A stretch of DNA of 64,000 nucleotides from an uncultured Desulfobacter sp. (lineage in GTDB: Bacteria; Desulfobacterota; Desulfobacteria; Desulfobacterales; Desulfobacteraceae), in the NCBI GenBank assembly GCA_963665095.1, contig OY762069.1, positions 6,816,001 through 6,880,000 of the forward strand, in the 5' to 3' direction. The position numbers were made by a program, and so were the translations under genes. Positions 26,478-29,494 of this stretch are shown here, piece by piece. Within the stretch, counting starts at the first letter, position 1. Every line of letters starts with the position of its first letter. The notes under the pieces were generated by a model. That model did no database searches. It had not been told where the DNA came from and saw only the letters and a list, made by a program, of their open reading frames with translations.

Positions 26478-26690
26478 TTTCCCTTCCTGTCTTTGTGTGT
26501 CGGTGCTCCTTAATCAATTGGTAATCATAATTTCAGGAACCAAACTTGTATTTGGGAACGGGATGAGATACTTTTATTCGATTATAAACCGGCCTGAATT
26601 TTGGGCATCAATCTTTCCCGAAATTTGAAGTCTGTTTTTATTAAATCCATGGAGCACCAAGAGGAATATACAAAATAATTGGATGCACCA

Positions 26691-27407
26691 ATGAAACAGA
26701 TCAATTTAATATTTGCCATACTTTTACTGATGCTTGCCCTGGCTGTGCCTGTAAATGCTTTAGCCGGGCCTAGAGCGGTGCCTGTGGCTCCTTCTTATAA
26801 TTTTGAGGCGGTGCCTGAAGGACAGCATATTTACCATGATTTTGTTATAAAGAACGAAGGTGATGCGCCTTTGAACATCACCAAGGTTCAACCTCCTTGA
26901 GGCTGCGATAGCAAAGCCTATGACAGGCAGATTCCCCCGGGCGGGGAAGGTAAAATCACCATTGGTTTTAAGACCGCTGGATATGGCGGCCGGCAACTTA
27001 GCAAGAAAATTATGGTTTATACCGATGATCCTGGCAATAAAAAAATTTACCTGGTCATAAGTGGGACTGTTAAAGATATCATCAAGGTCGCGCCGCGCAC
27101 TGTCAGTTTAAGCGGTGCCCCGGGCCAGACGCTGAGTGCCGTGGTTAATATCGAGGCCGTTGAAGGCAATGAACTCAATATCCTTGATATCCGTCAAAAG
27201 TTCAATAAGCAGATCAAATCCGAACTTGTCCGGCCTGTTAAAGGTGAAAAAAAATGGCAGGTAAAGATATCTTGCCATTCAGACCAGCCGGCGGATCTCT
27301 ATGATTTTATTACGCTAAAAACCGACAATCCTGATAAACCGTTATTGAAAATCAGGGTGTATGCTATCTATGACCGGGTCACTGGATCGGGTGCATCAGG
27401 GTCTTAA
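26691..27407 (+). CDS. Secreted DUF1573-type (Ig-like) protein, probable selenoprotein with UGA readthrough at 26898-26900
   Basis: ORFs 26679-26900 and 27012-27407 are one frame broken only by TGA; reads FVIKNEGDAPLNITKVQPP*GC...IPPGGEGKI...GYGG...KKIMVYTDDP, with TGA at the first Cys of the family CGC motif. Confidence 0.8.
26901..26948 (+). promoter_or_regulatory. Candidate bacterial SECIS element
   Basis: Hairpins just 3' of the UGA: GGC-TGC-GATA-GCA-AA-GCC (26901-26918), GCCT-ATGAC-AGGC (26916-26928), TTCCCC-CGGGC-GGGGAA (26932-26948). Confidence 0.5.
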
Positions 27408-27453: not shown

Positions 27454-28095
27454 ATGGACGCAGCCCAGATCAAAGCTGTTGTATTTGACTGCGATGGCGT
27501 GATGTTTGATACAGCCCAGGCCAACCGGATATTTTATAATGAAATTCTGGCTGCCTTTGGCAAGCCCTGCCTCAATGACGAGCAGTTCATCAATGTGCAT
27601 ATGATGACGGTTAAGGCGGCTGTGACGTATCTTTTCCCCGAACTGGATGATGTTGTGCCTGTGTATAAGAAGATCAAAAGTATCGGGTATGACACGGTTG
27701 TGCCGTACATGCAGATGGAAGCAGGCCTGACCGAACTTTTAGCCGATCTTAAGGCTGCCGGCATGATCCGCGGTGTGGCCACCAACCGGACCAATACCAT
27801 GGAAAATGTACTTGTTACCCATCATCTTTCAGACGCCTTTGAAATTGTTGTCACGGCATCTGATGTGGTGAACCCGAAACCGGCGCCGGACCAGCTTGAA
27901 AAAATCATGGCTGCGTACGCCCTTCTGCCTCGTCAGATCGTGTTCATAGGGGACTCTGTATATGATCAAAGGGCAGCTGAATCAGCCGGTACCTGGTTTA
28001 TTGCATTTAAGCAGCCCGGGCTTGATGCTCATGCCCATGCTGTCTCCATGAATGAGATTAAAGAACTGTTAAAGATAAGCGAATATAATTCTTGA
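27454..28095 (+). CDS. HAD-family hydrolase (phosphoglycolate phosphatase-like)
   Basis: FDCDGVMFD motif I, ATNR, KPAP, IGDS..D; ATG 27454 avoids overlap with the upstream gene. Confidence 0.9.
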   Translation: MDAAQIKAVVFDCDGVMFDTAQANRIFYNEILAAFGKPCLNDEQFINVHMMTVKAAVTYLFPELDDVVPVYKKIKSIGYDTVVPYMQMEAGLTELLADLKAAGMIRGVATNRTNTMENVLVTHHLSDAFEIVVTASDVVNPKPAPDQLEKIMAAYALLPRQIVFIGDSVYDQRAAESAGTWFIAFKQPGLDAHAHAVSMNEIKELLKISEYNS

Positions 28096-28120: not shown

Positions 28121-28216
28121 TTACGAGATTTTTAAAAAAAATTGAAGTCGGTTGCCGGGTCAAGGCATCTGACACGTTATAATGGCAGTTAACCATAGAT
28201 AAGGAGAATGACGTAT

Positions 28217-29494
28217 ATGTCTAAATTAGTTGCACCCCACGGTGGTAAAGGTCTTGTATGCTGCAAGCTCGAAGGCGCAGAACTGGAAGCTGAACTGAAA
28301 AAAGCCGCAGGTCTGAAAAAAATTGAAATTTCTTCCCAGGTTAAAGGCGATCTGATCATGCTGGGCATTGGTGGTTTCTCTCCGCTGAACGGCTTCATGA
28401 CCAAGGCTGACTGGAAAGGCGTTTGCGAAGACTTCCTGATGGCCGACGGTACTTTCTGGCCGGTTCCCGTTATGCTTGACGCTGCTGCTGATGATGCAGC
28501 AGAGATCAATGTTGGCGACGAAATCACCCTGGAAAGAAATGGTGAGATCTATGCTACCATGAAGATCGAAGAAAAGTTCGAGATGAGCGAAGATGAGAAG
28601 AAATGGGAATGCGAGAAAGTTTACAAAGGTCATGGCGAAGAGTCTGCTGACGATTGCTTCTGGAAAATCGCTATGGAAGATCATCCTGGCGTCCAGATGG
28701 TAATGGCCAGAAAAGAGTTCTGCCTGGCAGGTCCTGTAAAAGTTCTCTCCGAAGGCGAATTCCCCGAAAAATTCAAAGGCGTTTACCTGACTCCTGCTGA
28801 AACCCGCGCTATCATGGATGAAAAAGGCTGGGCAAACGTTGCTTCCATGCAGCTGAGAAACCCCATGCACAGATCCCACGAGCATCTGTGCAAGATCGCC
28901 CTTGACGTATGTGACGGCGTTCTGATTCATTCCCTGATCGGTAATCTCAAACCCGGCGATATCCCTGCAGAAGTACGTATCAAATGCATCGACACCCTGA
29001 TCAAGGGTTACTTTGTACCGGAACACGTTATCAACGGCGGATATCCTCTGGACATGAGATATGCTGGTCCCCGTGAAGGCCTGCTGCATGCTACCTTCCG
29101 TCAGAACTACGGTGTTAACAGAATGATCATCGGCCGTGACCATGCCGGCGTAGGTGACTTCTACACCCTGTTCGAAGCACAGGAAATTTTCGACACCATT
29201 CCCATGCCGGAAGAAGAAGGCAAACGCCTGCTGTGCGAGCCTCTGAAAATTGACTGGACCTTCTACTGCTACAAATGTGACGGCATGGCTTCCATGAGAA
29301 CCTGCCCCCATGGCAAAGATGACCGCGTAATCCTCTCCGGTACCAAACTGCGTCACGCCCTGTCCAACGGTGAGCCCGTTGTTGATCACTTTGGCCGTGA
29401 AGAAGTTCTGGTTATCCTTAGAGAGTACTATGCCAGCCTGACCGAAAAGGTTGAGGTTAAACTGCAGAGCCATGCAGAAGGCACCAAGATGTAA
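28217..29494 (+). CDS. sat: Sulfate adenylyltransferase (dissimilatory type)
   Basis: [55 protein letters not shown]; strong codon bias. Confidence 0.97.

Follow-up and report, generated by a model that had tools for sequence, protein, structure and literature searches.

A DUF1573-family gene whose internal UGA is very likely read as selenocysteine, possibly with a two-hairpin recoding signal

Does an in-frame TGA in the first third of an Ig-like protein gene end translation, or is it read as an amino acid, and if so, what might the uninterrupted protein do? In the window (the whole stretch of 64,000 nucleotides from an uncultured Desulfobacter sp. that was analysed here), a single frame runs from an ATG at 26691 to a TAA at 27405-27407, spanning 239 codons including the stop and encoding 238 residues, with one internal TGA, codon 70 at 26898-26900. 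Here, we argue from comparative sequence analysis that this UGA is very likely decoded as selenocysteine (Sec), and we discuss how it may be recoded and what the protein may do.

Reading frame, family and decoding of the internal UGA

The plain list of open reading frames splits the gene into an upstream piece at 26679-26900 (73 aa, TTG start) and a downstream piece at 27012-27407 (131 aa), separated by 37 open codons. The protein database entry for this genome is only the downstream 131-aa piece (P0002), and relatives are represented there by comparable downstream pieces of 131-154 residues; the readthrough frame corrects this annotation. A first-pass annotation of this DNA had proposed one 239-codon frame with a lone TGA, cut in two by gene callers, in which 37 stop-free codons continue the domain, and all of this is borne out, the last by a domain match that spans the TGA.

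26691..27407, + strand: coding sequence of a predicted OS_HP2/DUF1573 selenoprotein, 238 aa, Sec at codon 70 (frame reading, family models, TGA conservation)
26898..26906, + strand: U70-G71-C72 motif, TGA at 26898-26900 (frame, orthologue columns, protein alignment, contigs of public runs)
26793..27071, + strand: DUF1573/NF041425 domain, residues 35-127, PapD/ASH-like Ig fold (Pfam, NCBIfam, predicted model, fold matches)

The readthrough protein scores 134.8 bits against the NCBIfam model NF041425, "OS_HP2 family (seleno)protein" (cut-off 100), and 72 bits against DUF1573 (PF07610; cut-off 26.1) over residues 35-127, across the TGA. The upstream piece alone reaches 24.9 bits on DUF1573, below the cut-off, and the downstream piece gives no match. 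Zhang and Gladyshev (2007; PMC1976440) introduced OS_HP2 as a new family of selenoproteins, and a "DUF1573 domain-containing protein, UGC" is tabulated with the 2007 reference in PMC9312934; we equate the two, because both models match the same residues and the Atlas cluster so named carries PF07610 at 100%. PMC13188914 places the DUF1573 UGC entry under "predicted with high confidence", not under "experimentally verified". The gene is a further member of a predicted-selenoprotein family listed since 2007, and the family itself is not new, which settles against novelty a question that the first-pass annotation had left open. The entries for DUF1573/OS_HP2 in the reviews PMC9312934 and PMC13188914 are silent on location, fold, SECIS layout and function, and our literature search found no functional study of DUF1573.

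Several lines of evidence support the decoding of the UGA as selenocysteine. The genome encodes tRNA-Sec (selC) together with selA, selB and selD, all three above cut-offs, and its selD itself contains an in-frame TGA. A match to the protein was found in 59 of 61 relatives' genomes, and in 57 of these 59 the best match contains a TGA; the TGA lies at codon 70 in all 40 of these TGA loci that were checked, and the same column is TGC or TGT in each of the 12 stop-free homologues fetched. Across a phylum-wide sample, NF041425 matches 62 of 151 genomes, and the 29 loci listed at this level have either TGA (18) or TGC/TGT (11) at the motif. The protein alignment shows an invariant C72 and C or U at position 70; a third cysteine (195) is not conserved. 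Purifying selection acts on both sides of the TGA, with dN/dS among 24 same-genus genes of 0.20 over codons 26-69, 0.18 over codons 71-107 (the 37 linker codons) and 0.21 over codons 71-228. Every test run of those that the first-pass annotation had proposed for Sec recoding (orthologues, Cys/TGA correspondence, sel genes, downstream selection and SECIS criteria) thus came out in its favour.

Could the UGA instead be read as tryptophan or cysteine, by an altered code or leaky readthrough, or be a true stop that yields two short proteins? Three database proteins (P0001, P0003 and P0004) do have W at the position-70 column, and many databases list downstream pieces of 131-154 aa. However, the W forms sit on contigs of about 1-1.4 kb, which suggests that the W is a gene-caller artefact of code choice. 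TGA is moreover a normal stop in this genome, where it ends 656 of 1972 frames of at least 400 codons, and the scan for tRNAs found 45, of which tRNA-Sec alone has a UCA anticodon; stop use and tRNA set together rule out a genome-wide reading of TGA as Trp. A true stop would halve the domain, and selection acts on the 37 codons that separate the pieces. We consider all these readings very improbable. A nonsense mutation or assembly error, for which no support was found, is refuted by dN/dS of about 0.2 downstream of the TGA and by the TGA being shared by 40 of 40 orthologue loci and by the contigs of four out of four public runs, which come from four studies at most and show no alternative letter at the TGA (one run is possibly the window's own source, and the other three differ from the window at 2-3 other bases).

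Cysteine forms occupy the conserved position of the gene, next to a HAD hydrolase gene, at three loci (L043, L045 and L084), probably as Sec-to-Cys replacements; genomes G048 and G025 retain selA. Genomes G048 and G049 contain selA, yet have only the Cys form among their matches. A Sec-to-Cys change by way of machinery loss is unsupported, as selA was present in all five genomes tested, including both Cys-only ones.

The gene follows that of an MBL-fold hydrolase and is separated by 46 bases from a HAD-IA hydrolase gene, beyond which lies the gene for sulfate adenylyltransferase (sat).

27454..28095, + strand: HAD-IA family hydrolase gene, downstream, a conserved neighbour across the order and probably on the same transcript

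In the relatives' sample the HAD gene lies downstream in 40/40 TGA loci, at one of them beyond a Cys paralogue, versus 3/12 Cys loci, and sat falls within the fetched flank in 29 of the 40. This linkage identifies the TGA-bearing genes as positional orthologues and does not indicate function; a functional link to the HAD gene was set aside as inherited gene order, since only 4 of 29 phylum-level loci have HAD nearby. A promoter/terminator scan found no + strand promoter upstream of the gene. The sulfate adenylyltransferase gene of the window (28208-29494) contains a long antisense ORF at 28226-29473 (415 codons), probably a shadow frame.

In-frame TGA codons at known Sec motifs also occur in the genome's selD, in two MvhD/FlpD genes and in five formate-dehydrogenase-like genes. 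Besides the window's gene, at least eight TGA genes, all on contig G000:C1, have canonical SECIS-like hairpins: selD at 6745510, MvhD-like genes at 1447671 and 753902, and five molybdopterin genes. The genome also contains tRNA-Pyl (G000:C1:900717-900790) and pylS (896260-897006 on the same contig); decoding of pyrrolysine as well as selenocysteine is thus likely, a pairing that PMC1976440 reports in a related symbiont.

Hairpins downstream of the UGA

How is the UGA recoded? SelB-tRNA-Sec would almost certainly insert Sec here, guided by a hairpin at 26932-26948 and possibly with help from a second hairpin at 26916-26928.

26916..26928, + strand: proximal hairpin, 4 bp at -4.9 kcal/mol, with the first two loop positions lacking G (weak in the window, strong in distant Sec homologues)
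26932..26948, + strand: distal hairpin and candidate SECIS, 6-bp stem, G at position 2 of a 5-nt loop, -8.9 kcal/mol, 37 nt from UGA to loop (folding and comparison)

The distal hairpin is the TTCCCC-CGGGC-GGGGAA element that the first-pass annotation had pointed out among several, and the proximal one is weaker. The consensus bacterial SECIS is given in PMC13188914 as a loop of 3-9 nt, a stem of 4-16 bp, a G in the first two loop positions, a spacing of 16-37 nt and an energy of -7.5 kcal/mol or lower. Checked by hand, the distal hairpin lies within all these bounds, with its spacing at the upper limit of 37 nt. Folded as a single sequence, the region is no more stable than its shuffles (z -0.4 to -1.2), and against synonymous recodings p is 0.09; single-sequence folding was therefore dropped as evidence for a SECIS, and the evidence for the hairpins is comparative only.

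Codons 79-86 show fewer synonymous differences among the 24 same-genus genes, 0.16 versus 0.55-0.59 elsewhere. Pairing in the distal hairpin stands at 91% across 39 distinct Sec genes, and four of its six pairs have changed on both sides, by a control that ignores kinship; RNAalifold favours a shifted register, with weak covariation. Contigs of other organisms in the public runs align to the window's gene chiefly over 26910-26965, a peak of DNA-level conservation at the hairpin region.

We compared the hairpins over 57 Sec and 22 Cys genes, leaving out one duplicate and the Cys locus L084, which the pattern had missed. Across this set, the start of the distal loop ranges from +38 to +42, and its spacing exceeds 37 nt in 27 of the 57 Sec genes. 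In the genome's other Sec genes, a G-containing loop starts at +19 to +24 in all eight checked, versus +38 in the window's gene. A G stands at the first or second place of the distal loop in 56 of 57 Sec genes and 19 of 22 Cys genes have it too, owing to the conserved Pro-Gly encoded there; the proximal hairpin, which lies at the canonical distance, has such a loop G in none of the 57 Sec genes.

Outside the window's own family (27 Sec genes; 16 Cys genes, one of them the Cys paralogue from this genome), Sec genes have the more stable hairpins, at -9.5 versus -3.2 kcal/mol for the proximal and -10.8 versus -6.9 kcal/mol for the distal one. Their excess over synonymous recodings is 5.8 (proximal) and 4.2 (distal) kcal/mol in Sec genes versus 1.0 and 0.4 in Cys genes. 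The window's family (30 Sec, 6 Cys) shows a weak contrast: p is 0.03 for the proximal hairpin and 0.15 for the distal one, which is thus not more stable in Sec than in Cys genes there. The p values exaggerate significance, because kin are not independent. One locus holds Sec and Cys paralogues in tandem (L046; G041:C37:14664-16232), and there the Sec copy has two strong hairpins (-11.3 and -15.8), the Cys copy two weak ones (-3.1 and -8.8). Three distant Sec homologues (L098, L100 and L101) have one extra codon, which shifts the window's distal hairpin to +41; it is identical to the window's in L100 and L101 and has one changed loop base in L098.

Possibly, then, the unusual point of an otherwise ordinary selenoprotein is a recoding signal made of two hairpins. 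We offer a two-part SECIS as a testable suggestion and not as a result, given the weak contrast within the family, a proximal hairpin of only -4.9 kcal/mol in the window and the kinship among the genes compared; a narrow literature search for tandem or two-part SECIS elements found nothing relevant. More speculatively, the G-less proximal hairpin might fold out about 13-20 bases, so that the distal G-loop hairpin, 37-41 nt from the UGA, could reach SelB. The signal would then make up a SECIS class of its own, overlooked by consensus searches, and the protein would act as a periplasmic Sec disulfide catalyst built on an Ig rather than a thioredoxin fold and found almost throughout this order of sulfate reducers, a combined picture that we hold only tentatively and judge rather doubtful as a whole. 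Should the two-hairpin signal prove real, the bacterial SECIS model would become broader and missed selenoproteins easier to find.

Export, predicted structure and possible function

The N-terminus carries a predicted signal peptide, and a second domain follows the DUF1573 domain.

26691..26765, + strand: predicted signal peptide, residues 1-25, with a basic start, a hydrophobic core, an A-L-A cleavage-like site and no lipoprotein Cys (sequence, hydropathy)
27081..27371, + strand: second all-beta Ig-like domain, approximately residues 131-227, no Pfam match (predicted model, fold matches)

Hydropathy places a hydrophobic stretch at residues 3-25, ending in A-L-A, and homologues have signal-like N-termini, as judged by eye. 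One homologue in the Sec form is fused behind an OmpA-family domain (L057:979-2097), and in this genome's Cys paralogue (L002:931-2127; G000:C1 near 2737400-2738600) a cytochrome c554-type heme domain is fused to a DUF1573 domain with C-A-C. Both partners are envelope-type domains, so that a periplasmic location fits. Hydropathy and fusions alike support the export that the first-pass annotation had proposed, and the signal peptide is quite probably cleaved after residue 25 to leave a soluble periplasmic protein. The Cys paralogue also has a signal-like N-terminus and a further Ig-like domain, and its heme part resembles a UshA-like (seleno)protein model, with a score below the cut-off.

AlphaFold2, run on a 30-sequence alignment, predicts two all-beta domains with a pLDDT of 95, in which U70 sits in a loop and C72 at the start of a strand. 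The best fold matches of the first domain are ASH/HYDIN/PapD-like Ig domains (Z 9-13), and the pilus chaperones YadV, EcpB, CupB2 and FaeE match at Z 9.0-9.4. The protein has no Pfam match to the PapD family, and the gene lies in no usher/pilin operon, its neighbours being the two hydrolase genes. It also differs from the thioredoxin alpha/beta fold with U/CxxC, as the model is all-beta and helix-free and the motif is UxC. Among solved structures, a single-sequence search returned none and a profile search only 2qsv (E 0.0006), a two-domain protein of P. gingivalis whose matched domain is without the cysteines.

What could such a protein do? The first-pass annotation had conjectured a redox or metal-binding role. 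We favour, with a probability of roughly 0.6, a putative periplasmic selenol/thiol-disulfide catalyst, either a redox chaperone or a disulfide isomerase/reductase, in which U70 would attack client disulfides, C72 would resolve the mixed bond and the PapD-like Ig domains would serve as the protein-binding surface. Against it speak a fold that is not thioredoxin-like, the lack of cysteines in the matched domain of 2qsv, and neighbouring genes that encode no redox partner.

Selenolate/thiolate pairs also bind soft metals, and Ig-fold periplasmic copper carriers exist. The protein might accordingly be a true selenoprotein in which U-G-C is a soft-metal site (for Cu, Hg, Zn or an Fe cofactor), acting as a periplasmic metal carrier or scavenger, and several of the selenoprotein families tabulated in PMC13188914 are metal-binding. 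However, the invariant columns include no conserved His or Met beside the motif, inspection by eye of the flanking ORFs of the 25 loci listed revealed no metal transporter, and metal carriers are absent from the top 50 fold matches, although this last is a weak absence. We regard a metal site as unlikely. Slightly less likely still is a true but non-catalytic selenoprotein, either a scaffold or a chaperone that binds unfolded envelope proteins in a PapD-like manner, in which the bond between U70 and C72 has a structural or regulatory role. The fold matches, which are interaction domains and pilus chaperones, would suit this role, as would the occurrence of the domain in two to three Ig repeats and in fusions, and the lack of cysteines in the matched domain of 2qsv. 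On the other hand, it would be costly to keep Sec, with an RNA signal in the coding region, across a phylum, and the characterised selenoproteins covered in PMC9312934 place Sec in redox sites. A match in 59 of the 61 genomes sampled makes this predicted selenoprotein close to a core gene of the order, and so a reasonable target for a first biochemical test.

Comparison with known systems

The protein resembles the NF041425/DUF1573 UGC family in its score above the cut-off, its PF07610 domain, its UGC motif with one Sec, its Cys homologues and its broad lineage, and at the family level we see no difference. The window's branch has U-G-C-D-x-K where the family has U-G-C-T after the motif, and adds the second Ig domain. 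With PapD-like and ASH/HYDIN-VesB-CFA65 Ig domains and 2qsv it shares the fold of the first domain (Z 11-13, rmsd of about 2 A over about 100 residues), and with 2qsv also the presence of two such domains; identity is however 9-18%, the matched domain of 2qsv lacks C/U-x-C, and a shared fold shows no function. The distal hairpin is like the consensus bacterial SECIS of PMC13188914 in loop size, stem length, loop G and energy, and differs in a spacing that just reaches the limit here and exceeds it in 27 of 57 Sec homologues, and in the G-less hairpin that precedes it. Finally, a Cys-Gly-Cys peptide is described as a mimic of PDI (10.64898/2026.01.27.701630), and MauE as forming disulfides by means of a CXC site in this phylum (10.64898/2026.03.05.709764). 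The U-G-C protein resembles these CXC redox catalysts in its pair of reactive chalcogen residues, spaced by one residue, in an exported setting, whereas sequence and fold are unrelated, so that the analogy is one of chemistry only.
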